This document shows, piece after piece, positions 2,600-63,298 of a DNA stretch of 64,000 nt. The DNA lies in the NCBI GenBank assembly GCA_963833225.1, contig CAWHXD010000019.1, positions 640,001-704,000 of the forward strand, read 5' to 3'. The first letter of the stretch is position 1. Each line of letters begins with the position of its first letter. The DNA is from an uncultured Chloroflexia bacterium. Lineage in GTDB: Bacteria > Chloroflexota > Limnocylindria > Limnocylindrales > CSP1-4. The notes below the pieces were generated by a model that had not been told where the DNA came from, ran no database searches, and worked only from the letters and a program-made list of their open reading frames with translations. Made by a program: the position numbers and the translations under genes.

Positions 2600-3821
2600 G
2601 TGTCGTCGCCCCGCAAGGTCGCGCTGTTCACCAACGAATACCCGCCAAACGTCTACGGTGGCGCAGGCGTGCACGTCGAATACCTCAGCCGCGAGCTGTC
2701 CCGCCTGGTTCCGGTGGAGGTCCGTTGCTTCGGCGACCAGGATGCCGACGAGCCCAACCTCCGGGTGAAGGGCTACGGCCCGTGGGCGGAGGCCACCCAC
2801 GACACGGACCCGCGCTTTCGGGGCGCGCTCGACGCCTTCCAGCGCAACCTGGCGATGGCCAAGGACACCCTCGACGCGGACGTCGTCCACTGCCATACCT
2901 GGTACGCGGACATGGCCGGATTCCTGGCCAAGAAGCTGTGGGGCGTGCCGCTGGTCCTGACGACGCACTCGCTCGAGCCATTGCGTCCGTGGAAGGTGGA
3001 GCAGCTCGGCAACGCCTACGAGCTCTCGGGCTGGATGGAGCGGACGACGATCCTCGATGCCGACGCGCTGATCGCGGTATCGCGGGAGACGACGGGCGGA
3101 CATCCTGCGCTTCTTCCCCGTTGACCCCGCCCGGATCCACGTCATCCACAACGGGATCGACCTCGACGAGTACCGCCCGGATCCCCGGACCGCCTTCCTC
3201 GAGCAGTACGGAATCGACCCCGACCGTCCGTTCGTGCTGTTCGTCGGCCGGATCACCCGCCAGAAGGGGATCATCCACCTCGTCAACGCGATCCCCGAGA
3301 TCGATCCGTCGCTCCAGGTGGTGCTCTGTGCCGGCGCCCCCGATACCGCCGAGATCGGGGCCGAGATGGCGCAGCGGGTGGCCGAGGTGAGCGCAGGCCG
3401 GGCCGACGTGACCTGGGTCCGGGAGATGCTGCCGCGTGAGGCTGCGATCCAGCTCTACTCGCACGCGGCGGTGTTCTGCTGTCCGTCCGTCTACGAGCCG
3501 TTCGGGATCATCAACCTCGAGGCGATGGCCTGTGAGACGGCGGTGGTGGCGTCCGCGGTGGGGGGCATCCCGGAGGTCGTGGTACCCGAGGAGACAGGGC
3601 TGCTGGTCGACCCGCGGATCCGCGAAGGGACGTTCGACCCGGTCGATCCGGCGGCGTTCTCAGCCGGCCTGGCCGAGGCCATCAACCGCGTCGGGCTGGA
3701 CGAGGCGCTCCGGGAGCGGATGGGCCGGGCGGGCCGGCAGCGCGCGAGGACCACTTCAGTTGGGCTGCGATCGCGCAGCCAGACGCTCGACCTGTACGGG
3801 CGGCTGCTGGACGCCCGGTAA
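2600..3821 (+). CDS. glgA: Glycogen synthase / GT4 glycosyltransferase (actinobacterial GlgA/GlgM type), frameshifted near 3093, with compensating shifts near 3745 and 3779
   Basis: TNEYPPNVYGGAGVHV, HCHTWY and HSLEPLRPWKVEQLG in the first ORF. FVGRITRQKG and PSVYEPFGIINLEAMAC in the second ORF. GAGGAGG SD. Confidence 0.85.
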
Positions 3822-3826
3822 CCAGG

Positions 3827-4561
3827 TCAGTCGGCCTCTCCGATCTCGTAGGCCATCAGCCGGCGGACGGCCACGGCCAGGGCGATGGCGAAGACCACGA
3901 CCGAGAGGGCGATCGCCACGCCTCCGGCCAGCAGCTCCCCGGCGGCAGCCCGGGAACCGCCCGCGGTCGCGTCCGCGATGGACAGCGCGTACTGGCGGAT
4001 GGAGAAGGTCCGGGTCCCCGCGAACAGGCCGGCCAGAAAGCCTTCCCATGCGAGGACGTAGATGAGCCCGATCGCGAGCGCCCTGGACGTCACCAGGCTG
4101 AGCGCCAGGAAGATCGTCACGTAGAGCACCGCCGCGACGGCCGCCCCGAGCCCATAGCCGGCCGCCGTGGCCAGCCCGGTGCCCCCGGCTGCGAGGATCG
4201 CCCCGGCGATGACGGCGGCGGGCGCGGTGACCACCACGGCCAGCCCGGCCGCCGCGGCCGTCTTGGCGGCGACGATCCGCCACCGCGCGATCGGCTTGGT
4301 GATCAGGTAGATGGCCGTTCCATCGTCGAGCTCCGAGCCGAGAGCGGCCGTCCCGAAGACGAGCGAGACGAGCGGGACGAGGGTCGAGATGACCAGGCGG
4401 TCCATGATCGTGTCGGTGACTTCGGTGATCCCCGACTCCTGCCCCGACAGCCGGACGAGCAGCGCGATCAGGATCGGCAGCGCTCCCAGCAGCGACACGA
4501 GCAGGCTCCGCCGCCGCCCGGTCAGGGCACGCACGGTCAGCGCGGCGATCAGCCGGATCAC
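3827..4561 (-). CDS. ABC-2 type transporter permease
   Basis: About 6 TM helices and an ELDDGTAIYLITKPIARWRIVAAK motif; operonic overlap with the ATPase gene. Confidence 0.85.
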   Translation of the reverse strand: MIRLIAALTVRALTGRRRSLLVSLLGALPILIALLVRLSGQESGITEVTDTIMDRLVISTLVPLVSLVFGTAALGSELDDGTAIYLITKPIARWRIVAAKTAAAAGLAVVVTAPAAVIAGAILAAGGTGLATAAGYGLGAAVAAVLYVTIFLALSLVTSRALAIGLIYVLAWEGFLAGLFAGTRTFSIRQYALSIADATAGGSRAAAGELLAGGVAIALSVVVFAIALAVAVRRLMAYEIGEAD

Positions 4562-5539
4562 CGGCGCACCAGGTAGCCAAAGACGCTCTCGAGATCCTCG
4601 TCCGTCGGCTGGACCTCGAGCAGCGTGATGCCGGCATCACGGGCGATGACCGCCAGGGAGCGCGCAAACGCCAGGTAGTCGGAGGTGCGCACGGACAGCC
4701 TGCCCTCGCCAAGCTCGACCCCGAAGACCGCCGGGTGGCCGACGAGCCCCGCCGCCAGGTGGCGGTCGTCCGACGAGTGGATGGTGAACGTGTGCGGGCG
4801 GTCGGTCATCAGCCGCCGGATCTCGCGGAAGTCGCCCGATGCCGCCAGGCGCCCGGAGACGATCACCAGGACGTTCTGGGCGAGCCGCTCGACCTCCTCG
4901 AGGATGTGCGAGCTGAACAGGATCGTGCGCCCCTCGCCGGCCATCCGACGCAGGAGATCCATCATGTGCAGGCGCTGGCGCGGATCCATGCCGTTGAACG
5001 GCTCGTCGAGCAGGAGGATCGACGGCTCGTGGACGAGGGCTCCCGCGATCTTCACCCGCTGGCGCATCCCCTTGGAGTAGGTCCCGATCGTGCGACCGGC
5101 GGCATCAGCCGAGCTCGACCGTCGCGACCGCACGGTCGGCCGCCGCCTCAGGGTCGGGCAATCCCTGGAGCCGGGCGTTGAGCAGGGCGAAGTCGCGCCC
5201 GGTCAGGAACGGGTAGACCGCCTCCCGCTCGGGAACCAGCCCGACGCGCCGGTAGATCGCCGGGTCGCGCCAGGCCGGCCGGCCGGTGATCGCAACCTGT
5301 CCGGCCGATGGCCTGAGCAGGCCGGCGATGAGGTGGAGGAGGGTGGACTTGCCCGCCCCGTTCGGGCCGAGCAGTCCGGTGACCCCCGGCCGCAGGGTGA
5401 ACGAGATGTCGTTGACCGCGACCACGTTGCCGTACCAGCGCGAGACCACCTGGAGCTCCACGGCGGCGGTGGGATCGAGCGGGCGTGGCGGAGCCGCAGG
5501 CACGCCCCAGCCGGCCAGTCGCGGGTCGCCGGCCGTCAT
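4558..5539 (-). CDS. ABC transporter ATP-binding protein, frameshift near 5108
   Basis: Walker A GPNGAGKST (tail of ORF 5105..6421) joins the signature YSKGMRQR, LLLDEP and SSH of ORF 4558..5133. ATG at 5539 overlaps the upstream TGA. Confidence 0.85.
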
Positions 5540-6421
5540 GCCTCGATCCTCCGGTACCGCCAGACGAGGCCGAGCGCGGCGACGGCAGCAACGACCAGCG
5601 CTCCGATGGCCAGCGCGGCGGTGGGGATGGACGACGCTCAGAGCGGCCTCGGCGCTCGGCCGGACGCCGAAGAACCAGGCGTTGACTCCGTCGAGCAGGG
5701 ACCCGATGTCGATCATGATGATCCAGTCGGACAGCCGCCCCGGGTCGATGGCGATGACGATGGCCGCGATGATCCCGGGGATGATGAACACGCCGAAGAT
5801 CGCCGCGGTCGCGTAGGCGCGACGCGGCGTGAACGAGGCGGCCAGGAGGGCCACGGCGGCGAGGGTGACCGCGATGACCACCGATGAGCCGAGGACCGGG
5901 GGCAGGGTGGCGGCCTCCGTTCGGAGCGCCGTGACGATGTCCGGATCGAGCAGGATGGTCCCGGCGCCGAGCAGGAGGTGGGGGACGAGCAGGATCGTCA
6001 GGGTCCCGATGCTCATGGCTGCGAGCTTGGCCAGCGCATAGTCGGTGCGGCGCAGCGCCCGCGAGAAGTACAGGGTGAGGACCCGGTAGCGCTGGTCACG
6101 ACCGAGCAGCTCCGGCGCCTGGGCCGCGACGAACAGGAGCGGGAACACCGAGACCGCCGCATACAGCCCGTCATGCCCGGGGATGCCCGGGACGTCGCCG
6201 AGGTCGACCTGGGCCGCGAGGGCGCGGACCCCGACGAGGATCAGGGCGATCAGCGCCGGAAACCCCACGCAGACGACCGGCAGGATCTTCGCCCGGCCGT
6301 TCCGGCCGATGCCGAAGACGCTCCGGGCCGAGTGCCGGACCAGGGTCGAGACGGCGTGGCGGCGGCCGAGGCGCGGGCCGTCGTAGCCGCGATAGCCGAG
6401 GTCGTAGATGCTGCCGCTCAC
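5536..6421 (-). CDS. ABC-2 type transporter permease, frameshift near 5635
   Basis: GSIYDLGYRGYDGPRLGR start and DQRYRVLTLYFSRAL motif. The last helix (IPTAALAIGALVVAAVAALGLVWRYRRIEA*) is in a shifted frame ending at TGA 5536. Confidence 0.8.
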
Positions 6422-7460: not shown

Positions 7461-9512
7461 TCAGCCGGCCGTGGGTGGTCGGGTGCTCGAGGTGCGGCGC
7501 CGTTCGCCGCGCCGTCGCTCCACGCCTCCGGGTGGCGGCGCGACGCTGCTTGTCCGCCGGTCCGCCCTTCGGCGCTCGCCGCCGGCGGGCAGCTGGGGCA
7601 CGGATGTGGCCGTCGCTGCGGCCGGCTTGGCGGCCACGGTCGCCGCAGCCGGCTTGGCGGCCACGGCCGCGGCGCGCGGTGCGGACCCGCCGACCTCGGC
7701 GATCACGCCCAGCGAGATCCGGAAGCCGGCTCGTCGCTGCTGGGGCGGCATCATCGTTCCCTGGCCGACCGGCGCGTCGCCCGGGAACCATTTGACCCAC
7801 TCCTCGTTGAAGGCATCGAACTCGGCCGGGTCACGCAGCGACCAGTTCGCCCACGCGATCCGCTCGAGCGACGAGCCCTTCGCCTCCAGGAGGCGATTGA
7901 GGTTCTCCAGGCACTGGGTGGCCTGCGCGGCGATGGACTCCCCGGCGATGTGCCCGGTCTCGGGGTTCACCGGGCCGACGGAGGACACGTACACCATGCC
8001 GCCGGCCTCCACGGCGTGCCCCAGCCCGATCTTGAGCCGGGGTGCAAGCTCGCCCGACTGCTCGATGCCGATGGACCGTCCCTTGCCAAGCCGGATCTTC
8101 ACCGGGTGTTCGGCATCCTCCGCCGGGATCCCGAAGTCCCCCTCCGGCAGCTCGATCCCGGACGCCTGGAACTTGGGCATGAACGTGGGTCGCTCGCCGG
8201 TCGGCTGGAGCGTGCCCACGATCTTGCCGTGCTCATCGACACCGGTCTGCTTGAACTCGAAGATGTCCTGGGTGAGGATCTGGTCATCCTCGATCCCGTA
8301 GACCTCGGTGATGTTGATGATCTTGCGCGAGCCGTCGCCGAGACGGGCGGTGTGCACGATGAGGTCCACCGCGGACGCGATCTGCTCCCGGATCGAGCGC
8401 AGCGGCATCTCGTAGCCGGCCATCAGGATCATGGTCTCGAGGCGGCGGAGCATGTCCGGCGAGCTGTTGGCGTGGCCCGTCGAGAGGGACCCTTCCTGGC
8501 CCACGGTCATCGCCTGGATCATGTCCAGGGCCTCGCCGCCACGGCACTCGCCGACGATGATCCGGTCCGGGCGCATGTGGAGCGCGTTGCGGAGGAGGTC
8601 GCGGGTCGTGATCTCGCCCAGGCCCTCGAGGTTGGGCGGGCGGGCCTCGAGGGTCACGACGTGCTCTTGGCGGAGCTGGAGCTCAGCCGCGTCCTCGATG
8701 GTGATGATCCGTTCCTCCTCGGGGACGAAGGCCGAGATCACGTTGAGGGTCGTCGTCTTGCCGGAGCCCGTGCCGCCCGAGACGAAGATGTTGAGACGGG
8801 CCTCGACACAGGCGCGCAGGAAGTCGAACATCTCGGCGCTCGCGGTGCCAAACCCGACCAGGTCCTCGACCGTGTACGGGCGCTGCGAGAACTTCCGGAT
8901 CGTGATCACGGGCCCGATGAGGGACAGGGGCTCGATGATGCAGTTGACGCGCGATCCGTCCGGGAGGCGGGCGTCGACGCGCGGGCTGGTCTGGTCGATG
9001 CGGCGCCCAAGCGGCGTGATGATGCGGTCGATGATCCGGAGGACGTGGTCGTCGTTGAGGAACGACATCGGGACGCGCGAGATCTTGCCGGCGCGCTCGA
9101 TGTAGATGTGGTCCGGTCCATTGACCATGATCTCGGTGATCGTCGGGTCGGCGATCAGCGGCTCGAGCGGGCCCAGGCCGCTGACCTCGGCGATGACCTC
9201 CTCGGCGAGGCGATTGCGCTCGCCGCGCGTGACCGCGAGCCCGTTGGCCACGATGAACCGCTCCAGGATCGCATCCACGGCCGTCCGGAGGTCGGAGGTC
9301 TTGGAGGCCTCGAACAGCGCATGCGACGACCCGACGACCTCGTCCTGGAGGCGACGACGGACCTCGCGAAGCCACTCCTCGCGGGCGGCGTAGTTCGCGG
9401 GCGCGCCAATCGGCACGGTGGCCACCGCGCTCGTGGCGGGCTTGGCCTCCGCGCTCCCAGGTGCATCCGTTGCGGCCTGCTGGGCGCGCTCGATTCGCGA
9501 GGTGAGGGACAT
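7461..9512 (-). CDS. TadA/CpaF-family secretion ATPase fused to a C-terminal Rid (YjgF/YER057c/UK114)-like domain
   Basis: GLGPLEPL...EIMVNG, SPRVDARLPDGSR, Walker A GGTGSGKTT, TIEDAAEL, MRPDRIIVGECRGGEA, TGHANS. Then AVEAGGMVYVSSVGPVNPETG...QATQCLENL...FDAFNEEWVKWFPG...ISLGVIAE (Rid fold). ATG 9512 has a GGGGAG SD. Confidence 0.9.
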   Translation of the reverse strand: MSLTSRIERAQQAATDAPGSAEAKPATSAVATVPIGAPANYAAREEWLREVRRRLQDEVVGSSHALFEASKTSDLRTAVDAILERFIVANGLAVTRGERNRLAEEVIAEVSGLGPLEPLIADPTITEIMVNGPDHIYIERAGKISRVPMSFLNDDHVLRIIDRIITPLGRRIDQTSPRVDARLPDGSRVNCIIEPLSLIGPVITIRKFSQRPYTVEDLVGFGTASAEMFDFLRACVEARLNIFVSGGTGSGKTTTLNVISAFVPEEERIITIEDAAELQLRQEHVVTLEARPPNLEGLGEITTRDLLRNALHMRPDRIIVGECRGGEALDMIQAMTVGQEGSLSTGHANSSPDMLRRLETMILMAGYEMPLRSIREQIASAVDLIVHTARLGDGSRKIINITEVYGIEDDQILTQDIFEFKQTGVDEHGKIVGTLQPTGERPTFMPKFQASGIELPEGDFGIPAEDAEHPVKIRLGKGRSIGIEQSGELAPRLKIGLGHAVEAGGMVYVSSVGPVNPETGHIAGESIAAQATQCLENLNRLLEAKGSSLERIAWANWSLRDPAEFDAFNEEWVKWFPGDAPVGQGTMMPPQQRRAGFRISLGVIAEVGGSAPRAAAVAAKPAAATVAAKPAAATATSVPQLPAGGERRRADRRTSSVAPPPGGVERRRGERRRTSSTRPPTAG

Positions 9513-9646
9513 GGACGACTCCCCGGGCGCGGCCATCCCCGTGCGGCCGCGTTGCGCAAGATCCTACGCGCGGACCGCGGTATCGGGAAGGCCCTCCTCG
9601 CGGTGAGGCGCGGCTGGGCGGTGTCCGCGGTCACCGGGGGCCATCG

Positions 9647-9675
9647 TTGACGGGGCAACCACTGGAGGCTAGGCT
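9647..9675 (+). promoter_or_regulatory. Sigma70-type promoter TTGACG-N17-TAGGCT
   Basis: -35 at 9647-9652, 17-nt spacer, -10 at 9670-9675, and ATG 6 nt downstream. Confidence 0.75.
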
Positions 9676-9681
9676 TCGCGC

Positions 9682-9777
9682 ATGGTTGAGGTCGCCCTCG
9701 CGGGCTGTACGGGTCAGCGGTGCTCCTGTCGTCGGCGAGCGCCGGCGACGGTCGAGCGTGCGGCAGCGTTGAGCTGA
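9682..9777 (+). CDS. Putative leaderless Cys-containing leader peptide MVEVALAGCTGQRCSCRRRAPATVERAAALS
   Basis: ATG at the predicted transcription start; 3 Cys codons; overlaps alternative hairpins; precedes DUF4395. Confidence 0.55.
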   Translation: MVEVALAGCTGQRCSCRRRAPATVERAAALS

Positions 9778-9886
9778 CCCGCACCGGCTGACCGCTCCGG
9801 GCCTCGCCCCCTCCCCGTCGCCCCGCGCTCCGTCGCGTCTCCTCGCGCACGGCGCGCCCGTCCCGTTCGACCCGGAGTCCTTCCTC

Positions 9887-10408
9887 GTGTCCCTGTCCCT
9901 GTCCCTGATCCTCACCCCCACCCCTGCGCGGTCCATCGACCCCCGCGGCCAACGGTTCGGCGCCGCCGCGTCGGTCGTGGTCCTTGCCCTCGCATTCGCG
10001 CTCGGCCAGTCCTGGCTCGCTGCCCTGGTCGGGCTCAACCTGCTGGTTGCGGCGGCGTTCGGCACGCGATGGTTCGTCCCCGGCCGCGCCTGGCCGCTCA
10101 TCCGCCGGGCGGTGCGGCTGGGACCGGCCGAGCCCGAGCACGAGTACCCGCCACGCTTTGCCCAGGCGCTCGGCGGCACGTTCCTGGCGCTGGCCACGGC
10201 AGCCTTCCTGCTCGGTGCCACTCCTCTCGGGTGGGTCCTCGCCGGCGCCGTCGCCGGCCTCCAGGCCCTGCTGGCCGTCACCGGGATCTGCGTCGGATGC
10301 CGCCTCTATTTCCTGCGCTGGTGGGCACCCTCACTGGTCGCGCGGCTCTTCCGGCGAGCCGATGGCCTGCCGCCGCTCGACGTCCCCGCCCTCAACCGGA
10401 TCGGATAG
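9887..10408 (+). CDS. DUF4395 family membrane protein
   Basis: IDPRGQRFGA, EHEYPPRFAQALG and GICVGCRLY motifs typical of DUF4395; GGAG SD. Confidence 0.85.
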   Translation: MSLSLSLILTPTPARSIDPRGQRFGAAASVVVLALAFALGQSWLAALVGLNLLVAAAFGTRWFVPGRAWPLIRRAVRLGPAEPEHEYPPRFAQALGGTFLALATAAFLLGATPLGWVLAGAVAGLQALLAVTGICVGCRLYFLRWWAPSLVARLFRRADGLPPLDVPALNRIG

Positions 10409-10418
10409 GGCCCCCGAG

Positions 10419-11276
10419 TCACGGCGCCTCGAGCCCGTGACGCTCCAGCAGCTCCGCGTCCGCGAGGAGCCGGTCTGTCGCCCCGTCGGCCACGATCTGG
10501 CCGTCGTCCACGACCACGGTCCGCGGGAACACCTCGGCGACGAGGCGCATGTCGTGCGTCGAGACGAGCGTCGTCTGGTCGAGGCCACGGAGCAGCGTGA
10601 TGAGCTCCCGGCGGCCACGTGGATCGAGCCCGGCCGATGGCTCGTCGAACACGAGGATCGAGGGGCTCATCGACAGCACCGTGGCGAGGGCCACCCGCTT
10701 GCGCTGTCCAAGCGACATGCGATGGGGGACCCGGTGGGCGAAGGCCGCCATCCCCACCGCGGCCAGCGCCCGCTCCACCCGGCGATGGACCTCATCGGCC
10801 GCCATCCCCATGTGGAGCGGTCCGAACGCCACGTCGTCGAACACGGTCGGGCTGAACAGCTGGTCATCGGGGTCCTGGAACACGAGGCCCACCTCGGCCC
10901 GCACGCGGCGAATGGTCTCCCGGGTCACCGGCAGCCCGGCGACGCGGACCGATCCGTGAGCGGGCCGGAGCGTGCCGTTGAGCTGGAGCATCAGCGTGCT
11001 CTTGCCGGCGCCGTTGGGACCGACCAGGGCCACCTTCTCGCCGCTCCCGATGTGGAGGTCGACCCCCCGCAGGGCCTCGAACCCGTCCGGGTAGCGGAAG
11101 TGGACATGTTCGAGGTCCACCCGGCCACGCTCGTCGGCGGGCGCGGTGCCGTCCGGCTGCGGCTCGCCCGGCGCATGGAGGTGGGGATGCGCGTGCGGCG
11201 GCGCGCCCTCGTGGACGTGAACGTGGACGTGGTCGTGCTCCAGCTCGGGCACGCCACCTTGGTCGAGGGTCGTCAC
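10419..11276 (-). CDS. cbiO: ECF transporter ATPase (CbiO/NikO) with a His-rich N-terminal extension
   Basis: GPNGAGKST, LVFQDPDDQLF, SLGQRKR, DEPSAGLD. GTG 11276 overlaps the cbiQ stop. Confidence 0.9.
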   Translation of the reverse strand: MTTLDQGGVPELEHDHVHVHVHEGAPPHAHPHLHAPGEPQPDGTAPADERGRVDLEHVHFRYPDGFEALRGVDLHIGSGEKVALVGPNGAGKSTLMLQLNGTLRPAHGSVRVAGLPVTRETIRRVRAEVGLVFQDPDDQLFSPTVFDDVAFGPLHMGMAADEVHRRVERALAAVGMAAFAHRVPHRMSLGQRKRVALATVLSMSPSILVFDEPSAGLDPRGRRELITLLRGLDQTTLVSTHDMRLVAEVFPRTVVVDDGQIVADGATDRLLADAELLERHGLEAP

Positions 11277-12067
11277 AGGCGGGGAAGCCACAGGATGGCG
11301 ATGACCTCGTAGGCCGTGAGCAGGGCAAGGATGGCGGCAAGCCAGGCGATCTCCGTCCGCGCGAGCGCCCGGGTCCGCAGGTGCCGGAACTCGCCCTCGA
11401 ACCCGCGTGCCTGCATCGCCGCGTAGATCCGCTCGCTGCGCTCGTAGGCACGCAGGAACAGCGAGCCGACCATGCGCCCGGTCACGGCGGCGCGCCAGCG
11501 GATGGAGCCTCCGGGGGATCCGTCGCCGGCGGCCGAGCGTGCATCCCGGGCCCGGAGCATCCGGGCGCCCTCGTCGGTGAGCACCGCGAGGTACCGGTAC
11601 ATGAACGAGATGATCGCGATGATGATCCGCGGAACCCGCAACTCCCGGAGGGCATCCACCAGGTCGTGGAACGGTGTCGTGAACGCGAGCAGCAGGGCGA
11701 CCTGCACGGACAGCCAGCTGCCGGTCATGATCGTGAGGAAGCGGCGCAGGCCCTCGGCGGAGATGGTCGGGTTGAGCGGACCCAGGGCCACGGTCGTGAT
11801 GATCTGCTCCTGGACAGTGAAGATCAACGGGAACGCGGCCAGCGCGAACGGCAGCGCGACGACGGCGGAGCGGGACAGGCGGAACGGTCCGAGGCCGGCG
11901 GTCGCGGAGGAGGCGACGAGCACCAGCCAGATGATCAGCATCGCCAGACCCGAGCCCATCGGCAGCAGGCTGATCACCAGGATGGTGGCGATGGCCAGGA
12001 TGAACTTGAGCCGCGCGTCGGCGCGGTGGAACGGGCTGTCGCCCTCGACGTACCGGTCGAGCTCCAG
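11273..12067 (-). CDS. cbiQ: ECF transporter T component (CbiQ/NikQ)
   Basis: FMYRYL, RAYERSERIYAAMQARGF. The conserved N-terminus (LELDRYVEGDSPFHRADARLK) extends upstream of the track's start to CTG 12067. Confidence 0.88.
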   Translation of the reverse strand: MELDRYVEGDSPFHRADARLKFILAIATILVISLLPMGSGLAMLIIWLVLVASSATAGLGPFRLSRSAVVALPFALAAFPLIFTVQEQIITTVALGPLNPTISAEGLRRFLTIMTGSWLSVQVALLLAFTTPFHDLVDALRELRVPRIIIAIISFMYRYLAVLTDEGARMLRARDARSAAGDGSPGGSIRWRAAVTGRMVGSLFLRAYERSERIYAAMQARGFEGEFRHLRTRALARTEIAWLAAILALLTAYEVIAILWLPRL

Positions 12068-12086
12068 GGTGCGGCGCTCCTGCCCG

Positions 12087-12449
12087 TCAGGCGCGCCGGC
12101 GGGCGACCACGCGCCCGAGGACGAACACCACGCCCACCACGATCGCGACGCCGAGCAGGCCTGACAGGATGGTGGACACGACCGGGTCGTCGATGCCCGG
12201 GATCGCGTAGCCGCTGAGCAGGCCCGAGAAGAAGTTCTGCGCCCGCTCGATGAAGCCGGTGTCCTCGGCGACGCGCTCGAGGCCGTCCGGATCGGACGAG
12301 GCGAGCGGGGCGAGAACGACGACCACGACGGCGACGATCGCCAGCCCGACGACCCACCACCACCGACCGAGACGGCCCCGAGGGGCGTGCCTGTCCTGCC
12401 CGCCAGCCGGGGCCGCCGGGGCCTCCTCCGGCTCAGACACGGCGGTCAT
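12087..12449 (-). CDS. PDGLE-domain protein (NikN-like ECF accessory)
   Basis: LASSDPDGLERVAED motif between two TM helices. Confidence 0.9.
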   Translation of the reverse strand: MTAVSEPEEAPAAPAGGQDRHAPRGRLGRWWWVVGLAIVAVVVVVLAPLASSDPDGLERVAEDTGFIERAQNFFSGLLSGYAIPGIDDPVVSTILSGLLGVAIVVGVVFVLGRVVARRRA

Positions 12450-13177
12450 GCCGCGGCTCCCATGGCCTGCTCCCGGTGCATGGCGCGATCCGGCCGGAGA
12501 TCGAGCAGATCCCGCCGCGCGACGCTGATGAACCCGATGGCCGCAGCTGTGATCAGGGCCTCACCGATGCCGATGACCACATGCACGCCGAGCATCGCCG
12601 GCAGCACCAGCTCGGCGGGGCTGGTGCCCGAGACGATCAGTTCCAGCGACATCATCGTGGCTCCCATCACGACCGACAGCCAGCCCGCGATCGCGGCGGC
12701 CGGGATGCGGCCCCGGTCCTCGCCTCCGAGGACGCCGCACAGCGCCCGGTACACGCCATAGCCGGCGAGGGTGCCCACGATCCCCATGTTGAAGATGTTG
12801 GCGCCCATCACCACCAGCCCGCCGTCGGAGAACACCAGCCCCTGGACCGCCACCACGCAGGCCATCACGAGCGTGCCCGCCCAGGGGCCGAGGAGGATGG
12901 CCGCGAGCACGCCCCCGAGCAGGTGACCGGACGTCCCACCTGCGACCTGGAAGTTGAACATCTGGGCCGCGAAGATGAACGCGGCCATCACGCCCATCAG
13001 CGGGATCGAGCGCTCGTCGAGGGAGCGGTTGGTTCGCCGCACGGCGATGGCGACCACGGTGGCCGAGATCGCCCAGAACACGAGCGACACCGGGACGCTG
13101 AGGAACCGGTCCGCCGCGTGCATCGACGGATCGCCGGCGACGATCGCCGGGGCGGCGGCAATGCTCAGCAGGTCCAT
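12446..13177 (-). CDS. cbiM: ECF S component CbiM/NikM
   Basis: MHAADRFL metal-binding N-terminus (ATG 13123, or exposed after a short leader from ATG 13177), FAAQMFNF, GGTSGHLLGG, HVVIGIGEALIT. Confidence 0.9.
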   Translation of the reverse strand: MDLLSIAAAPAIVAGDPSMHAADRFLSVPVSLVFWAISATVVAIAVRRTNRSLDERSIPLMGVMAAFIFAAQMFNFQVAGGTSGHLLGGVLAAILLGPWAGTLVMACVVAVQGLVFSDGGLVVMGANIFNMGIVGTLAGYGVYRALCGVLGGEDRGRIPAAAIAGWLSVVMGATMMSLELIVSGTSPAELVLPAMLGVHVVIGIGEALITAAAIGFISVARRDLLDLRPDRAMHREQAMGAAA

Positions 13178-13243
13178 GCGGCAACGGTCTCCCGGCGGCA
13201 GCAGCGGAATGGTGGACCAGCATGCTACTCGCAGCGCGTTGCT

Positions 13244-13261
13244 ACTGCAACTGGTTGCAAT
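13244..13261. promoter_or_regulatory. Candidate Fur-family (Nur) operator ACTGCAACTGGTTGCAAT
   Basis: TGCAAC-TG-GTTGCA inverted repeat in an AT-richer spacer between divergent cbiM and fur-family genes, flanked by -10-like hexamers on both strands. Confidence 0.65.
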
Positions 13262-13291
13262 ACTGGTGGTCGTCACCCTATCCTTCGCCCG

Positions 13292-13810
13292 ATGCACCCC
13301 CACGGATCTTCCCCGCGCAGCTCACCCGCGTCGACCGTCCGCGACGGCGGGATCGTGCGCGACGCAGGCGCCCGCAAGGGATCCTCGCCGTGGTCCGACG
13401 TCCGGGATCGGTTGCGGGCCCTGGGGCTTCGCTGGACGCCGCAGCGACGGACGCTGATCGATGTCCTGTCGCGGCTCGATGGCCACGTGACGGGCGCCGA
13501 GCTCGTCGAGCGGTGCCGCGAGGTGGACGCCGCGACCACGCCCTCGACCGTCTACCGGACGCTCGACGTCCTCGAACAGCTGGGGATCGTTCGCCACGCC
13601 CATGGCGCGGACGGCCGCGAGGAGTTCCACGTGCTGCCGGCGGCGGACCACGGACATCTCCACTGCCTCCGCTGCCGCGTCTCGTGGGAGATCGGAGAGG
13701 CGGAGGCCGCGGGGCTGGTGCGCGCCCTCCGCGCGGATCGCGGGTTTGCCGTGGAGCTGTCGCACGTCTCGATTGCGGGGATCTGCAAGGACTGCGCCGG
13801 CGATGGCTGA
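13292..13810 (+). CDS. Fur-family regulator, Nur-like
   Basis: TPQRR, HVTGAEL, STVYRTL, RHAH, HGHLHCLRC, SHVSIAG, CKDC. ATG lies 7 nt after TATCCT. Confidence 0.88.
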   Translation: MHPHGSSPRSSPASTVRDGGIVRDAGARKGSSPWSDVRDRLRALGLRWTPQRRTLIDVLSRLDGHVTGAELVERCREVDAATTPSTVYRTLDVLEQLGIVRHAHGADGREEFHVLPAADHGHLHCLRCRVSWEIGEAEAAGLVRALRADRGFAVELSHVSIAGICKDCAGDG

Positions 13811-49932: not shown

Positions 49933-50481
49933 ATGACGCTCGCCGAAGCCCCCGTGACCCCCGAGACGCTCCCCGTCCCGGAACCGGACAAGGAATCCGG
50001 GACCCGCAACAACGGGATCGCGATGATCTGTTACAGCGGCGACCTGGAGAAGACCTGGGCCGCCATGATCCTGGCCTCCACGGCCGGCGCGATGATGATG
50101 CCGACCAAGGTGTTCGTGACCTTCTGGGGCCTCCAGACCTTCGTGAAGCCCGAGAAGCGGATCACCGGCGACAACTGGATGCAGAAGATGCTGTCCATCA
50201 TGTCGCGCCCCGGCATCGCCCATCGCAAGCTGTCCAAGATGAACTTCCTGGGCATGGGCCCGTGGATGATGCGCAAGCTCGCCAAGCAGTACAACGTCGC
50301 GTCGCCGGCCGAGCTTCTCGAGATGGCCACCGCCATGGGCGTGGAGTTCATCCCGTGCCAGATGACGATGGACATGTTCGGCATCAAGCGCGAGGACCTC
50401 ATCGACGGCATGGGTGATCCCGTCGGTGCCGCGACCTACCTGGGCTACGTCGGCGACGGCGCCGCGCCCATCTTCATCTAG
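49933..50481 (+). CDS. DsrE2-like sulfur carrier
   Basis: SGDLEK, FVTFWGL, LSKMNFLGMG, PCQMTMD, VGAATYL. Confidence 0.88.
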   Translation: MTLAEAPVTPETLPVPEPDKESGTRNNGIAMICYSGDLEKTWAAMILASTAGAMMMPTKVFVTFWGLQTFVKPEKRITGDNWMQKMLSIMSRPGIAHRKLSKMNFLGMGPWMMRKLAKQYNVASPAELLEMATAMGVEFIPCQMTMDMFGIKREDLIDGMGDPVGAATYLGYVGDGAAPIFI

Positions 50482-50490
50482 CGCCTCCCC

Positions 50491-50519
50491 GGGCGGGCGG
50501 CGCCCCCCGCTGCCCGCCC
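50491..50519 (+). terminator. GC hairpin inside the sulfur operon
   Basis: GGGCGGGCGGCG / CGCTGCCCGCCC followed by a pyrimidine run. Confidence 0.35.
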
Positions 50520-50567
50520 TCCCTCTCCATCGCGTCCCGAACCGCGCTCCGAAAGGACATCCCTGCC

Positions 50568-50816
50568 ATGACAGAGACGGCCCTCCCGCCCATCACGCTC
50601 ACGATCGACGCCCGCGGCAGCTTCTGCCCGGGACCGCTGATGGAGCTCATCCGAGGCATGAAGGAATCCGAGGTCGGCGACGTGATCGCGGTCCTGTCGA
50701 CCGACAAGGGCTCCAAGACCGATATCCCCAAGTGGGTCGGCAAGGCCGGCCACACGCTCGTCGGCGTGTTCACCCGCGATGACTTCGACGAGATCATCGT
50801 CGAGAAGGTCCGGTAG
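50568..50816 (+). CDS. Second TusA-family sulfur carrier
   Basis: DARGSFCPGP, STDKGSKTDIPKW. Confidence 0.9.
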   Translation: MTETALPPITLTIDARGSFCPGPLMELIRGMKESEVGDVIAVLSTDKGSKTDIPKWVGKAGHTLVGVFTRDDFDEIIVEKVR

Positions 50817-50820
50817 CTCG

Positions 50821-52020
50821 GTGCAGCGAGTCGTCGTCCTGGGCGGCGGCGTTGGCGGCACCCTCTCCGCCAACCTCATCGCCCGCAAGCTCAAGCGCCA
50901 GATCGCAGCCGGCGCCGCGTCCGTGACCGTGGTCGATGTGACCGGGGTGCACGCCTACCAGCCCGGGTACATGTACATCGCCATGGGCCAGGAGCGCGCC
51001 AGCAGGCTCGTCCGGCCCGAGAAGAAGCTCCTGGACAAGAACGTCGAGCTGGTGGTCGACAAGATCACGCGCATCGACACGGCGACCCAGACGGTGTCGC
51101 TCGGTTCGGGCGCGGAGCTCGGCTACGAGCAGCTCGTCATCGCGACGGGATCCCGGATCGTGCCCGAGGACCTGCCGAACTTCGACTCGCAGGCCCATCA
51201 CTTCTACAGCGCCGAGGCGGCCTCCCGTCTGCGGACGGCGCTCGACGCGTTCGACGGTGGCAAGATCGTGATCGGGATCGCCGGCATCCCCTACAAGTGC
51301 CCGCCGGCGCCGCTCGAGGTCGCGTTCCTGATCGAGTCCGAGCTGCGCGAACGCGGTCTGCGTGACAAGACCGAGATCACGTTCCTGTCGCCCATCAACC
51401 GCGCGTTCACCATCGAGAGCGTGTCCGAGATGGTCACCCCGATCTTCGAGGAGAAGGGGATCAGGCTGGAGCTGCTCGCGGGCGTGGGCGAGATCGACGC
51501 CGAGCGCAAGGTCGTGGTCACCGATGCCTTCGAGGAGCACCCGTACAACCTGCTGATCTGCGTGCCGCCCCACAAGGGCGCCCAGGCGCTGATCGACTCG
51601 GGGCTCACGCCCAAGTCGGGATGGCTGCCCACTGACCGCCAGACCCTCCAGGTCAAGACGGTCGCCAAGCCCGCGCCCGGCCAGGCCGACGAGGACATCC
51701 CGCGCTTCCCCAACATCTACGCCCTGGGTGACACCACGGACCTGCCGCTGTCCAAGGCCGGGTCCACGGCCCATTTCGAGGCGCCGATCATCGCCGAGCG
51801 GATCGCGGCCGCCGTCGAGGGCCGCGAGCCCGAGGGCAAGGACGCGGCCTACACCGGCAAGGTCATGTGCTTCTTCGAGGTCGGTGACGGGAAGGGCACC
51901 CTGCTCCAGTTCGACTACGACCATCCCCCCAAGCCGCCCAAGCCCGGCAGGCTGTGGCACCTGGGCAAGGTGATCTTCAACAAGACGTACTGGCACACCG
52001 TGCCCAAGGGCCGCGTCTAG
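50821..52020 (+). CDS. sqr: Sulfide:quinone oxidoreductase-like flavoprotein (type III-like)
   Basis: GGGVGG, YQPG, YKCPPAPLE, ALGD, SKAGSTAH, KVMCF. Confidence 0.85.
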   Translation: MQRVVVLGGGVGGTLSANLIARKLKRQIAAGAASVTVVDVTGVHAYQPGYMYIAMGQERASRLVRPEKKLLDKNVELVVDKITRIDTATQTVSLGSGAELGYEQLVIATGSRIVPEDLPNFDSQAHHFYSAEAASRLRTALDAFDGGKIVIGIAGIPYKCPPAPLEVAFLIESELRERGLRDKTEITFLSPINRAFTIESVSEMVTPIFEEKGIRLELLAGVGEIDAERKVVVTDAFEEHPYNLLICVPPHKGAQALIDSGLTPKSGWLPTDRQTLQVKTVAKPAPGQADEDIPRFPNIYALGDTTDLPLSKAGSTAHFEAPIIAERIAAAVEGREPEGKDAAYTGKVMCFFEVGDGKGTLLQFDYDHPPKPPKPGRLWHLGKVIFNKTYWHTVPKGRV

Positions 52021-60111: not shown

Positions 60112-61380
60112 TCAGCCCCCGATGTGCGTTCGGCCGATCATCCCCGCGGCGACCGTCTTGTTGCTCGCCTCGTCCACCAGGATGAACGAGCCGGTCTGGC
60201 GGTTCTGCAGGTAGGGGTCCACGAACAGCGGCTGGGTGACGCGCAGCTGCACCCGCCCGATCTCGTTGAGCGCGAGCTCGGTCGCGGCCTCGTCGCGGTG
60301 GAGCGTGTTGACGTCGATCTTGTAGCTGAGCTCCCGGACCATCGCGCGGGCCCAGCGGGTCGTGTGCTTGATCCCGTACTTGCGCCCGGGCACCAGGGTC
60401 GCGCTCTCGTCCATCCAGCACACCTGGGCATCGATGTCCTGGGACACGATCGGCATGTTGTGGGGCCGGCAGATCATGTCGCCTCGCGAGATGTCGATCT
60501 CGTCGGTGAGGACGACCGTGACCGCCATCGGCGGGTAGGCCTCCGCCACCGGACCGTCGGCGGTGTCGATGGACGCGATCGTGGACTCGAGTCCGGACGG
60601 CAGGGCGACCACCTGGTCACCGGGCTTGAGGACGCCGGATGCGACCGTCCCCGCGTAGCCCCGGTAGTCGAGGACCTCGAGGCTCTGCGGCCGGACCACG
60701 TACTGGACCGGGAACCGCACATCCACGAAGTTGCGGTCCGACGCGACGTGCAGCCGCTCGAGGTGCGAGAGGAGCGGGGACCCGTCATACCAGGGCATCC
60801 TCGGGGACCGGGTCACCACGTTGTCGCCGACCAGGGCCGACACCGGGATGAAGGTCATGTCGCGGACCCGGAGACGGGTCGCGAACTCGCCGAACTCGTC
60901 CCGGATCGCCTCGAAGGTCCGCTCCGAGTAGTCCACGAGATCCATCTTGTTGACGCACACCACCACGTGGGGCACGCCCAGCAGCGTGGCCAGGAACGCG
61001 TGCCGGCGGCTCTGCTCGGTGATGCCCTTGCGGGCATCGAGCAGGATCAGCGCCACGTCGGCCGTGGAAGCCCCGGTGACCATGTTCCGGGTGTACTGCA
61101 CATGGCCGGGGGTGTCCGCGATGATGAACTTGCGGCGCGGGGTCGCGAAGTAGCGGTAGGCGACGTCGATGGTGATGCCCTGCTCCCGCTCGGCGCGCAG
61201 GCCATCGGTGAGCAGCGCGAGGTCCGTGTAGTCGTTGCCGCGATCGCGCGAGACGCGCTCGACCGCGTCCAGCTGGTCGGAGAACAGCGACTTGCTGTCG
61301 TACAGCAGACGACCGATCAACGTGCTCTTTCCGTCGTCGACGGATCCGGCGGTCGCGAACCGGAGGAGGTCCATCGGCAT
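60112..61380 (-). CDS. cysN: Sulfate adenylyltransferase subunit 1
   Basis: GSVDDGKST, AEREQGITIDVAYRYF, DTPGH, NKMD; no C-terminal APS kinase. Confidence 0.96.
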   Translation of the reverse strand: MPMDLLRFATAGSVDDGKSTLIGRLLYDSKSLFSDQLDAVERVSRDRGNDYTDLALLTDGLRAEREQGITIDVAYRYFATPRRKFIIADTPGHVQYTRNMVTGASTADVALILLDARKGITEQSRRHAFLATLLGVPHVVVCVNKMDLVDYSERTFEAIRDEFGEFATRLRVRDMTFIPVSALVGDNVVTRSPRMPWYDGSPLLSHLERLHVASDRNFVDVRFPVQYVVRPQSLEVLDYRGYAGTVASGVLKPGDQVVALPSGLESTIASIDTADGPVAEAYPPMAVTVVLTDEIDISRGDMICRPHNMPIVSQDIDAQVCWMDESATLVPGRKYGIKHTTRWARAMVRELSYKIDVNTLHRDEAATELALNEIGRVQLRVTQPLFVDPYLQNRQTGSFILVDEASNKTVAAGMIGRTHIGG

Positions 61381-62282
61381 CAGAAGTAGCCTTCCTTCTT
61401 GCGGTCTTCCATGCTGGTCTCGCTGGTCTTGTCGTCGCCGCGGGTCGCGCCCCGCTCGGTGATCCGCACGGCGGCGATCTCGTCGATGATCCGCTCGACG
61501 GTGTCGGCGTGCGACTCCACCGCCGCGGTCAGGTTGGCGTCGCCGACCGTCCGGTAGCGGCACAGGACGCGCCGGGAGACATCGCCGTCGCGGACGGGTG
61601 TGAACTCGTTCACCGCGTACAGCATCCCGCCCCGCTCCACGACCTCGCGCTCCTTGGCGAGGTACAGCTCCGGGATCTCGATCCGCTCCGCCCCGATGTA
61701 GGTCCAGATGTCGAGCTCGGTCCAGTTCGAGAGCGGGAACACGCGGATGCTCTGGCCCAGGTGGACCCTGCCGTTGTACAGGCTCCAGATCTCGGGCCGC
61801 TGGTTCTTGGGATCCCACTGGCCGAACTCGTCGCGGAACGAGAACACGCGCTCCTTGGCGCGGGCCTTCTCCTCGTCGCGCCGGGCGCCACCGAACAGCG
61901 CGTCAAACCGGTGCTTCTCCGCCGTCTCGAGCAGGACCGGCGTCTGGATCCGGTTTCGCGAGCCGTTTGGCTCCTCGCGGACCACGCCGCGAGCGATGGC
62001 GTCGGGCACGGACGCGACGACGAGCTTGAGGCCCAGCTTCTCGATCCAGCGATCCCGGTAGGCGAGGATCTCGGGGAAGTTGAGGCCCGTGTCCACGTGC
62101 ATCACCGGGAACGGGATCCGCGCCGGCGCGAACGCCTTGCGGGCGACGTGGAGCATCACGATCGAGTCCTTGCCACCCGAGAACAGGAGACACGGGCGCT
62201 GCATCTCGGCCGCGACCTCGCGGAAGATGTGGATGCTCTCGGCCTCCAGGGAACGGAGCTGGCTGAGGGAATGCGTGGTCAC
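61380..62282 (-). CDS. cysD: Sulfate adenylyltransferase subunit 2
   Basis: SGGKDS, GGARRDEEKARAKER, WDPKNQRPE, MEDRKKEGYF. Confidence 0.96.
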   Translation of the reverse strand: MTTHSLSQLRSLEAESIHIFREVAAEMQRPCLLFSGGKDSIVMLHVARKAFAPARIPFPVMHVDTGLNFPEILAYRDRWIEKLGLKLVVASVPDAIARGVVREEPNGSRNRIQTPVLLETAEKHRFDALFGGARRDEEKARAKERVFSFRDEFGQWDPKNQRPEIWSLYNGRVHLGQSIRVFPLSNWTELDIWTYIGAERIEIPELYLAKEREVVERGGMLYAVNEFTPVRDGDVSRRVLCRYRTVGDANLTAAVESHADTVERIIDEIAAVRITERGATRGDDKTSETSMEDRKKEGYF

Positions 62283-63145
62283 TCGGGTGCTCCTGGGGCG
62301 TCGTCCGGCCCGGCCTCCGCCAGCAGGCGGCGCACGTGGGCGACGAGCGCCGCATGGCAGACCAGCAGGTCCGGAGACCACGGGTCCGGCTTGTTGTACA
62401 CGATGGGGGAGCCGTCGAGGCGGGTGGCGACGAGCCCCGCGGCATGCGCCACGGCGACGGGTGCGGCGGAATCCCACTCGTATTGTCCGCCGGCGTGGAT
62501 GTAGGCATCCACCGCGCCCTCGACCACGGCGATCACCTTGACGCCGTTGGAACCCATGGGCACCAGCTCCACGTCGTCGCGGACGGCGAGCCTCCCGACG
62601 ACGGCGGGCGGACGGGTCCGTGACGCCGCGATGCGCACGGGGCGGTCGCCGGCCAGGACAGCACGAGCGGCGTCAGCGGTGGCCGGTGGCACGGACCCGC
62701 TGTGGAAGACCTGGCCACGTCCGGGGAGCGCCACGGCACCGGCGACCAGCCCGCGTTCGCGGTCCCAGAGCGCGACGTGGACCGCGAAGTCGGTCCGCCG
62801 GCTGCCGTCCGGGTCGATCTCGGCGAACTCCCGGGTCCCATCGAGGGGGTCGATGATCCAGACCCGCGCCGCCGCGAGGCGCGCAGGATCCTGCTCGGCT
62901 TCCTCCGACAGGATGGGATCGGCGGGCCGATGCTCGGCGAGGGCCGCGGCGAGCCAGGCCTGGGCTGCCGCATCTCCCGCGGCCCCGAGCGCCCGGCCGT
63001 CGAGGGGCAGGTCGCCTGTCCCGGCGCGCGCGCGGAGCGCCACCAGCACCCGGCCGGCGCCCTCCGCGAGGGCAGCAGCGAGGCGGACGTCGTCGCTGAG
63101 GTCGGCCGCCCGTGTCCCGGGGGCGCCCACGCGCTCGCTCGTCAC
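62279..63145 (-). CDS. cysQ: 3'(2'),5'-bisphosphate nucleotidase
   Basis: LSEE, WIIDPLDGTREF, GGQYEWDSAAP. Confidence 0.9.
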   Translation of the reverse strand: MTSERVGAPGTRAADLSDDVRLAAALAEGAGRVLVALRARAGTGDLPLDGRALGAAGDAAAQAWLAAALAEHRPADPILSEEAEQDPARLAAARVWIIDPLDGTREFAEIDPDGSRRTDFAVHVALWDRERGLVAGAVALPGRGQVFHSGSVPPATADAARAVLAGDRPVRIAASRTRPPAVVGRLAVRDDVELVPMGSNGVKVIAVVEGAVDAYIHAGGQYEWDSAAPVAVAHAAGLVATRLDGSPIVYNKPDPWSPDLLVCHAALVAHVRRLLAEAGPDDAPGAPE

Positions 63146-63298
63146 CAAGGCCTGCCTGCCGTCATCCGCCCGCACGCTCCTCTGTCATCCGCATCCGCGT
63201 CCGCGATCGACCGTCGTGGGTCCCGCGTAGCCGGAGCGAAGTTATCATCCACGCATGTCCTGCACCTTCCGGGCCCGGCAGCGCGATCGCCCGCGCTG

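Follow-up and report, generated by a model that had tools for sequence, protein, structure and literature searches.

The stretch of DNA considered here, hereafter the window, comprises 64,000 nucleotides (nt) from an uncultured Chloroflexia bacterium (GenBank assembly GCA_963833225.1, contig CAWHXD010000019.1, positions 640,001 to 704,000 of the forward strand), with a G+C content of 70.8%; all coordinates are positions in the window. Its subject is a leader element in the 350-nt gap between a leftward gene for a CpaF-type ATPase and a rightward gene for a membrane protein of the DUF4395 family. The element combines a promoter-like sequence, a short open reading frame (ORF) that contains three cysteine codons, and a set of RNA segments with alternative partners, the last of which is the Shine-Dalgarno (SD) region of the DUF4395 gene. 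The arrangement recurs upstream of DUF4395 in most of the related loci that were compared, and it is read here as a candidate for cysteine-responsive control of that gene.

The leader locus and its short open reading frame

The features on which the account of the leader ORF depends are as follows.

9647-9652, + strand: -35-like hexamer TTGACG, read from the sequence
9670-9675, + strand: -10 box TAGGCT (TAnnnT type), 17 nt after TTGACG and 6 nt before ATG 9682
9682-9777, + strand: leaderless short ORF of 31 codons plus TGA, the proposed sensor, peptide MVEVALAGCTGQRCSCRRRAPATVERAAALS
9706-9708, + strand: Cys9 codon
9721-9729, + strand: Cys14-Ser15-Cys16 codons TGC TCC TGT, the proposed stalling site
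9887-10408, + strand: gene for a DUF4395 membrane protein (Pfam PF14340, E = 9e-27), 173 amino acids, GTG start, the proposed regulated gene

The original prediction, made from the letters of the window, had described a promoter TTGACG-N17-TAGGCT ending 6 nt before ATG 9682, a 31-codon ORF at 9682-9777 with cysteines at codons 9, 14 and 16, a hairpin at 9726-9751 and a C-rich tract at 9800-9860. All four are present in the sequence, the hairpin with an 11-bp stem and a 4-nt loop, and the tract with 35 C, 17 G, 8 U and 1 A among its 61 bases. A scan of the leader region for consensus promoters returned none, because TAGGCT matches TATAAT at only three of six positions and the rule applied to the -10 box was too strict for the TAnnnT type. 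As a measure of background, a TAnnnT box lies 5-8 nt upstream of 12 of the 3570 RTG triplets (ATG or GTG) in the window, and three of these 12 coincide with the starts of predicted genes (offset 0), a hint that this organism has leaderless mRNAs. The available text of Zheng et al. 2011 (PMC3160421) reports leaderless genes predicted in four of 12 Chloroflexi genomes, amounting to about 4.7% of genes. When the box, the 5-8 nt spacing, an RTG start and an ORF of 6-50 codons with a CC or CxC motif are required together, the leader ORF is the single match on both strands of the 64 kb. Judged by its promoter, the short ORF looks leaderless, and its conserved frame, described below, suggests that it is translated.

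The leader was compared with 80 loci whose DUF4395 proteins are 62-86% identical to that of the window; these relatives are metagenome-assembled genomes (MAGs) of Chloroflexota, several of them titled Candidatus Limnocylindrales. The same element, termed class I, stands upstream of DUF4395 in 71 of the 80 loci, and the window together with these 71 forms an alignment of 72 leaders (A1) to which the counts below refer unless another total is given. A strict pattern for the core has exactly one match per locus in 70 of the 80, always upstream of DUF4395, and BLASTN with the intergenic sequence recovers most of the 80, the best-conserved part being 9721-9763. Alignment of the regions upstream of DUF4395 orthologues was the check that the original prediction had proposed for itself, and in it the start position, Cys14 and Cys16, and the three helices described below are conserved. 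A second kind of leader, class II, is found in six loci (L026, L037, L039, L053, L060 and L065), where a different ORF encodes a polycysteine peptide in which CC, CCC, CCCC or CCPCC precedes a stretch rich in Arg (RRRPR, for instance); each of these ORFs starts 10 nt after a TAnnnT box and about 150-300 nt upstream of DUF4395. In the three of them with a cleanly placed anti-Shine-Dalgarno (anti-SD) segment (L037, L053 and L065), an SD-like segment directly follows the Cys run and is complementary to the downstream element that pairs best with the real SD. Neither class is present in L027, L066 and L067, in the first two because DUF4395 follows another gene in an operon. Rfam 15 yielded no match at the gathering score in the window or in 12 loci, and a scan of 9400-10100 by E-value gave a chance-level match only (E = 9.4). 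From its recurrence across these sequences, the leader element is not chance.

The start of the ORF is tied to the promoter by a narrow spacing. Start codons are GUG in 40 leaders and AUG in 32, with U2 and G3 invariant, and the TAnnnT box precedes them by 6 nt in 37 leaders and by 7 nt in 28. Among these 65 the box occurs as 18 different hexamers that always keep T1, A2 and T6, and TTGAC is found at the -35 position in 34; in five of the remaining seven leaders the box lies 9-10 nt upstream. An imperfect palindrome, GTTGACGGGGCAAC, at 9646-9659 overlaps the -35 hexamer of the window, and TTGAC-N5-GCAA is found again in many loci of subgroup Ia, to which the window belongs; the palindrome could be the operator of a transcription factor acting in addition to an attenuator. 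In three relatives a tRNA-Gly(UCC) gene lies shortly 5' of the leader promoter (L018:2678-2753, L020:31-106 and L050:1449-1524).

The reading frame is conserved too. In every leader frame 0 remains open for 24-36 codons, closing at codons 27-36 in 71 of them, whereas frame 1 runs into a stop earlier than codon 27 in 62. Cys14 lies 39 nt from the start in 60 leaders, 36 nt in eight and 33 nt in four, so that this length varies by whole codons only. Cys14 is present in all 72 (UGC in 61, UGU in 11), as is Cys16, which is always UGU, and they enclose a single residue that may be S, I, T, A, L or M. Of the three cysteines that had been singled out in the window, the two of the CxC motif are thus invariant, whereas the position of Cys9 holds cysteine in only 35 of the 72. 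Each leader peptide contains two to four Cys, which make up 9.8% of all residues of the short ORFs. The residues that follow CxC are R, P, L or I, then R (67 leaders), R (72), V, A, E or G, then P, S or L, and A or V; outside this core both termini of the peptide can be sorted into sequence families that are unrelated to one another and constant in length.

Alternative helices around the cysteine codons

The RNA downstream of the start codon appears, from the alignment, to be organised as a conserved switch of four segments, namely the 5' arm of a hairpin lying over the Cys codons, a segment X, a segment Y joined to an anti-SD, and the SD region of DUF4395. In the window these and the adjoining structures are placed as follows.

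9722-9757, + strand: hairpin P2, core 9726-9736 paired with 9741-9751, loop GAGC; the 5' arm is segment 1
9722-9725 with 9754-9757, + strand: extension of P2, GCUC with GAGC
9734-9745, + strand: segment X (GGCGAG..CCGG), comprising the hairpin loop and the start of the 3' arm
9794-9808, + strand: segment Y plus anti-SD, downstream of the ORF stop and non-coding
9809-9870, + strand: C-rich spacer with a predicted GC hairpin (about 9825-9857)
9871-9878, + strand: Shine-Dalgarno region of DUF4395, CCCGGAGU, with GGAG at 9874-9877; segment 4
9712-9723 with 9781-9793, + strand: long-range helix, clade-specific, which forms in the window's enforced OFF-state fold

Across the leaders, 86.8% of 779 cells in P2 are paired, as against at most 64.5% when the partners are slid, and changes in the stem are mostly between G-C and G-U or between U-A and U-G, a pattern that fits an RNA and not a palindrome acting in DNA. 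A swap test, which like the others reported here is alignment-free, gives a duplex energy of -17.64 kcal/mol for the segments preceding the Cys codons and following the hairpin when both come from the same leader, -16.60 kcal/mol when they come from different leaders (3 of 5000 permutations) and -15.48 kcal/mol for shuffled sequence, which extends P2. The corresponding duplex test for the 5' arm of P2 against X does not separate cognate, non-cognate and shuffled pairs, because the segments used in it overlap and are GC-rich; the evidence for P2 is the pairing count given above.

The second helix joins X, inside the ORF, to Y, beyond its stop codon, through GGCGAG (9734-9739) with CUCGCC (9803-9808) and CCGG (9742-9745) with CCGG (9797-9800). 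It is paired at 89.7% as against at most 54.6% when slid, one of its column pairs (62/143) is CG in 65 sequences and UA in four, and RNAalifold, run blind on A1, returned it as the sole helix. Cognate segments are more stable than non-cognate ones (-19.58 against -18.88 kcal/mol, 0 of 5000 permutations) and than shuffled ones (-14.5 kcal/mol). Both partners contain positions that never vary, in X G53, G54, C55, G56, G58 and G63, and in Y G119, C122, C124, G125 and C126 (numbered from the start). The most invariant block outside the ORF core is CUCCGGGCCUCGC, at 9794-9806, 3' of the stop, and the exact 11-mer of the Y element occurs once in the window.

The third helix would hide the SD. It joins the anti-SD GCUCCGGG (9794-9801) to the SD region CCCGGAGU (9871-9878); 81.9% of its cells are paired, and 33 are changed on both sides as against 13.7 +/- 2.9 in shuffles. 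In the swap test the cognate energy is -16.42 kcal/mol, the non-cognate -13.98 (0 of 5000 permutations) and the shuffled -11.46. Compensating variants can be recognised by eye, such as CUGGAG with CUCCAG and CCGGAGGUC with GACCUCCGG, and in 67 of the 72 leaders the best anti-SD duplex overlaps or abuts CUCGC. The X:Y and anti-SD:SD helices both use CCGGG and are therefore mutually exclusive, as are X:Y and P2, since both use X. The minimum free energy (MFE) fold of the window has the SD joined to the 5' portion of the ORF; as a candidate for the conserved sequestering helix this pairing was rejected, since over the 72 leaders it does not improve on shuffles (-12.95 against -12.51 kcal/mol).

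The original prediction had placed the switch elsewhere, in two mutually exclusive pairings of the ORF. Both exist in the sequence: CGGGTCAGC (9710-9718) and GCTGACCCG (9773-9781), the latter across the TGA stop, are perfect reverse complements, and GGTCAGCGGTGC (9712-9723) pairs with GCACCGGCTGACC (9781-9793) around one bulged G. No other duplex of this type in the window is as stable as the second helix (-24.0 kcal/mol), although it reaches only z = -1.66 relative to its own shuffles. As a family-wide switch these pairings do not hold, being confined to the clade of the window; among the loci listed, an equivalent of the 9712-9723:9781-9793 helix beside the anti-SD is found only in L002 and L011.

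The helices also bear on whether the ORF belongs to the element at all. Invariant nucleotides and alternative helices are what one would expect of a riboswitch-like RNA that binds a ligand or a protein, and the hairpin is a near-palindrome that might serve as an operator in DNA, the ORF being accidental in either case. A DNA palindrome would not tolerate the frequent G-U pairs of the stem, however, no Rfam family matches the window or the 12 loci scanned, and an accidental ORF does not account for the conservation of the start codon, the frame, whole-codon length differences and the stop position, nor for an N-terminal stretch that is variable in sequence and constant in length; we regard this explanation as extremely improbable.

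Between the stop codon and the SD the leaders average 50% C and 25% G, a composition that invites another explanation, in which the same Cys-sensing ORF would act through premature termination, either by Rho on the C-rich tract or by a GC hairpin, instead of or besides access to the SD. The tract in the window (35 C and 17 G of 61 bases) is of this kind, a hairpin recurs in the spacer, and Rho-dependent control was proposed for terminator-less leader peptides with Cys runs in the accessible part of Seliverstov et al. 2005 (PMC1262725). Conversely, a search of 9300-10600 found no terminator-like site of the intrinsic type, the stability of the hairpin in the spacer does not exceed that of shuffles (mean z = -0.39, not significant), and a ribosome stalled at codon 14 does not cover the C-rich tract. 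The spacer pairs with the SD more weakly than do shuffles. Translational control explains the covarying anti-SD:SD helix directly, and an output through termination is in our judgement unlikely. In one relative the spacer region is lengthened by a perfect 20-nt tandem repeat of 3.5 copies between the anti-SD element and the SD (L070:2914-2984).

A candidate cysteine-responsive attenuator

The effect of a ribosome on these helices was modelled by masking 28 nt around each A-site position and computing partition functions for the 72 leaders. In the free RNA the median probability is 0.73 for P2, 0.00 for X:Y and 0.49 for pairing of the SD with the Y-linked anti-SD, and masks at codon 8 or at the stop codon leave values like those of the free RNA. 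With the A site on Cys14 the medians become 0.00 for P2, 0.94 for X:Y and 0.00 for the SD with the Y-linked anti-SD. The energy needed to open the ribosome-binding site (RBS) falls under the Cys14 mask from 9.08 to 7.44 kcal/mol, being lower in 53 leaders and higher in eight (Wilcoxon p = 2.4e-9), and in the window from 8.29 to 5.11 kcal/mol; a mask at codon 20 or at the stop does not change it.

The computation establishes a conserved promoter spacing, frame, pair of Cys codons and set of three helices, and the helices exclude one another as described. Taken with the ribosome model, these features suggest a ribosome-mediated, cysteine-responsive translational attenuator of the DUF4395 gene, a reading to which we assign a probability of roughly two in three. 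In such a system transcription would start at or beside ATG 9682, and the 31-codon ORF would be translated without a leader. With cysteine plentiful, the ribosome would reach the stop codon and the hairpin at 9722-9757 would re-form behind it; the CUCCGGG part of 9794-9808 would then pair with the SD region at 9871-9878, and DUF4395 would be poorly translated (the OFF state). Were Cys-tRNA scarce, the ribosome would pause once codon 14, the first Cys of CxC, had entered the A site, covering the 5' arm of the hairpin and leaving X (9734-9745) uncovered. Free X could now pair with the downstream element (GCGAG:CUCGC and CCGG:CCGG), and X:Y would take the anti-SD off the SD region, so that DUF4395 is translated (the ON state). 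The central proposal of the original prediction, a Cys-sensing leaderless attenuator before DUF4395 in a non-mycobacterial lineage, is supported, as far as computation can go, by the conserved spacing, the frame and length of the ORF, the CxC motif and the SD-sequestering helix, and also by the class II ORFs and by the cysE-like and cysK genes after DUF4395 in 15 of the 80 loci; the two pairings it had named for the purpose are not those of the family.

A number of observations weigh against this reading. The transcription start, translation of the ORF, stalling, dependence on cysteine, and how strongly and in which direction expression would respond are all inferred. The thermodynamic effect is modest, the mean change in opening energy being -1.64 kcal/mol, and the median unpaired probability of GGAG rises from 0.03 to only about 0.20, with its peak at codon 14. 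With the A site on Cys16 the mask covers X and the probability of X:Y is 0. For the window itself, the ensemble gives a probability of 0.00 for pairing of the SD with the Y-linked anti-SD, and the MFE fold places the SD against the 5' portion of the ORF. The permutation and shuffle tests on the leaders take no account of shared ancestry. Consecutive Cys codons are absent from the window ORF and present, as CC, in 16 of the 72 leaders. Conserved helices include the nucleotides of Cys14 and Cys16, and constraint on the RNA could by itself have kept these. The three Arg positions after CxC hold Arg in 53, 67 and 72 of the 72 leaders, and are about as conserved as the Cys codons. To these is added the result of a selection test based on single-step codon differences over codons 2-13, in which subgroup Ia, the window's own, gave no sign of selection at the amino-acid level (a synonymous fraction of 0.20 in frame, as compared with 0.24 and 0.45 out of frame); subgroup Ib gave 0.57 in frame against 0.17 and 0.40. 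It follows that selection acts on the frame, the length and the Cys codons of the ORF, and on the remaining peptide only within part of the family.

The excess of synonymous differences in subgroup Ib suggests some selection on the peptide, and together with the conserved core C-x-C-R-R-R-(V/A)-P-A it can be taken to mean that the ORF encodes a functional small protein, binding a metal or sulfur through CxC-RRR or acting as a partner of DUF4395, with helices that are incidental or self-tuning. Several features speak against such a protein. The peptide outside the core belongs to unrelated N- and C-terminal families of constant length, subgroup Ia lacks the excess, and the conserved core coincides with the helices nucleotide for nucleotide. 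Moreover, replacement of R by W or G is tolerated where pairing is kept (L032, L033, L035, L036 and L043), and Y, the non-coding partner, is as invariant as the core. We consider a small protein of this kind very unlikely.

The run of Arg residues raises the further question of whether the signal for the pause is Cys-tRNA at all, since Arg codons might act as a sensor of arginine or of the rare codon CGA, or the nascent CxCRRRxPA might arrest the ribosome. The Arg frequencies given above would fit either, and RRRPR follows the Cys run in class II ORFs too. However, the Arg codons form the stem and segment X, so their conservation is explained by pairing; P, L, I, W or G replaces R in some leaders; and the neighbouring genes described below indicate cysteine or sulfur, not arginine. 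A pause signal other than Cys-tRNA is therefore rated highly improbable. A specific form of arrest, in which the thiols of CxCRRRxPA in the exit tunnel would report sulfide, persulfide or the redox state, is quite unlikely as well. Were it true, the ribosome would be a direct reactive-sulfur sensor for a DUF4395 sulfur-handling module and, with the polycysteine variant of class II, there would be an independently evolved ‘Cys ribulon’ in Chloroflexota.

DUF4395, its neighbours and known attenuators

The proposed target of the putative attenuator is a helical membrane protein according to its AlphaFold2 model, a confident one (predicted local distance difference test score, pLDDT, 89.4) that consists of long helices; D18, R23, F91, G96, C135 and G137 are near-invariant among the relatives. 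Against the PDB a sequence search found nothing below E = 0.95 and Foldseek nothing below E = 1, tblastn against plasmids found no match, and the mentions of DUF4395 in the literature searched give nothing on function or regulation.

In the window DUF4395 stands alone. In 15 of the 80 loci (L028, L029, L032, L045, L048, L056, L058, L063, L070, L072, L073, L076, L077, L078 and L080) cysK lies 3' of DUF4395 on the same strand, mostly with a cysE-like gene between them, and in L077 and L078 it follows DUF4395 directly. With TIGR01139 (cutoff 351) the cysK genes of L029 and L077, the two that were scanned, reach 395 and 389 bits, and the cysE-like gene, which resembles serine acetyltransferase, scores 163 bits with TIGR01172, below the cutoff of 210. 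The succession of leader ORF, DUF4395, cysE and cysK looks like an operon. In two of the loci that lack a Cys leader (L027:741-4311 and L066:1605-4903) DUF4395 is part of an apparent sulfur operon, in which a rhodanese gene (L027) and a gene for an oxidoreductase that binds FAD and NAD(P) are followed by DUF4395 and then by a metallo-beta-lactamase gene; in L066 the metallo-beta-lactamase is fused to rhodanese and resembles persulfide dioxygenase. The neighbourhood as a whole is not conserved; once DUF4395 and a group of overlapping ORFs, mostly antisense, are set aside, no neighbouring family is found in more than 18 of the 81 loci.

Two neighbours flank the locus in the window.

7461-9536, - strand: gene for a CpaF-type/T2SSE secretion ATPase fused to an L-PSP (RidA-like) domain, divergent and upstream
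10419-13810, converging on DUF4395: CbiM / PDGLE / CbiQ / ABC-ATPase metal-uptake operon, with a divergent, adjacent gene for a Fur-family regulator

The first of these is an unusual fusion with a long tail rich in Ala, Pro and Arg, which may alternatively be an over-extension of the ORF into the next gene. Genes for a CbiQ-like protein and an ABC ATPase lie downstream of DUF4395 in about 13-18 related loci as well. Elsewhere in the window, the region 49933-52020 holds a DsrE_2 gene with an ATG 7 nt after a TAnnnT box, and thus leaderless-like, beside a gene for a pyridine-nucleotide-disulfide oxidoreductase, and the region 60112-63999 holds genes for an EF-Tu-like GTPase, presumably CysN-like, and for a CysQ-like member of the inositol monophosphatase family, in a cluster that runs leftward from a promoter beyond the window. 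A GT4 glycosyltransferase appears to be split into an N-domain (2600-3124) and a C-domain (3234-3821), and an ABC ATPase domain is split over overlapping ORFs (5105-6421 and 4558-5133); both cases may be frameshifts or assembly errors.

The closest known counterparts of the leader are the polycysteine attenuators of mycobacteria (Ms5788A/Rv0815A and Rv2334A). According to the available text of Canestrari et al. (bioRxiv 10.1101/834739), the leaderless Ms5788A of M. smegmatis contains a run of eight Cys codons, which base-pairs with the SD region of Ms5788, and raises downstream expression under cysteine limitation, a response seen at six loci; the thiosulfate sulfurtransferase gene cysA2 follows Ms5788, Rv2334A precedes cysK1-cysE in M. 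tuberculosis, and the criterion applied was at least two consecutive Cys codons. The original prediction had placed a mycobacterial polycysteine ORF before a DUF4395/sulfurtransferase operon; of these two the text of the preprint mentions the sulfurtransferase only. Such Cys leader ORFs had been predicted by Shell et al. 2015 (PMC4633059), so far as its accessible text goes. The likeness to these ORFs is one of architecture as described, and is not based on sequence comparison. In both settings a short leaderless ORF with an RUG start, here at the level of sequence (a -10 box 6-7 nt upstream and no SD), is the first cistron and carries Cys codons as a sensor, the SD of the next gene is hidden by an RNA duplex that a ribosome awaiting Cys-tRNA relieves (here, as proposed), and the targets concern sulfur or cysteine, with Rv2334A before cysK1-cysE comparable to cysK after DUF4395 in the 15 loci mentioned. 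The differences are of three kinds. The phylum differs, the present leaders coming from Chloroflexota MAGs; the mycobacterial ORFs have a C-terminal Cys run, whereas the window ORF has an interrupted CxC at codons 14 and 16, true poly-Cys being limited to the six class II loci; and in Ms5788A it is the Cys tract that engages the SD region, whereas here the partner of the SD is a separate anti-SD downstream of the ORF, reached by a relay of four segments. The lack of consecutive Cys codons in the window and of pairing between Cys tract and SD sets the element apart from the mycobacterial class, and its logic is of the ermC type with an amino-acid signal.

In translational attenuation of ermC and cat, an antibiotic together with the nascent chain pauses the ribosome on a leader ORF. 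With the ribosome halted on segment 1, segment 2 becomes available to segment 3, and segment 4, which contains the SD, is released. The same succession can be laid out here, with P2 as 1:2, anti-SD:SD as 3:4 and X:Y as 2:3, each 82-90% paired, and in the mask model the switch occurs at codon 14 only. What differs is the cause of the pause, which is presumably the supply of charged tRNA instead of an antibiotic, and the leaderless nature of the leader ORF. The trp and his attenuators resemble the element in that codons for the amino acid of the pathway lie in a short upstream ORF that overlaps alternative helices, as does the uORFC-8-2 of Rhodobacterales, which in the available part of Brewer et al. 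2021 (PMC8632094) is located upstream of cysS, carries a pair of Cys codons, in most cases codons 14 and 15, and is followed by a terminator. These systems use SD-led ORFs, tandem codons and an intrinsic terminator with a U run; no such terminator is found between the leader ORF and DUF4395 in the interval searched. Finally, the Cys-run leader peptides predicted before cys and cbs operons of Actinobacteria in the accessible text of Seliverstov et al. 2005 (PMC1262725) are likewise comparative predictions of Cys-codon ORFs that lack terminators and have pyrimidine-rich tracts downstream. They differ in having no conserved helices, as far as that text describes them, whereas three helices are supported here.

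The compact form of the RNA switch, with four segments defined to the nucleotide, is itself of interest. To our knowledge, control by cysteine that is sensed by the ribosome on a leaderless short ORF has so far been demonstrated in mycobacteria only. A conserved and architecturally different version in Chloroflexota suggests that this strategy is older, or has been reinvented more often, than thought. For the DUF4395 family the leader provides a first functional handle, as it points to a membrane protein that is probably induced by cysteine shortage, and that is encoded beside cysE and cysK or rhodanese genes.

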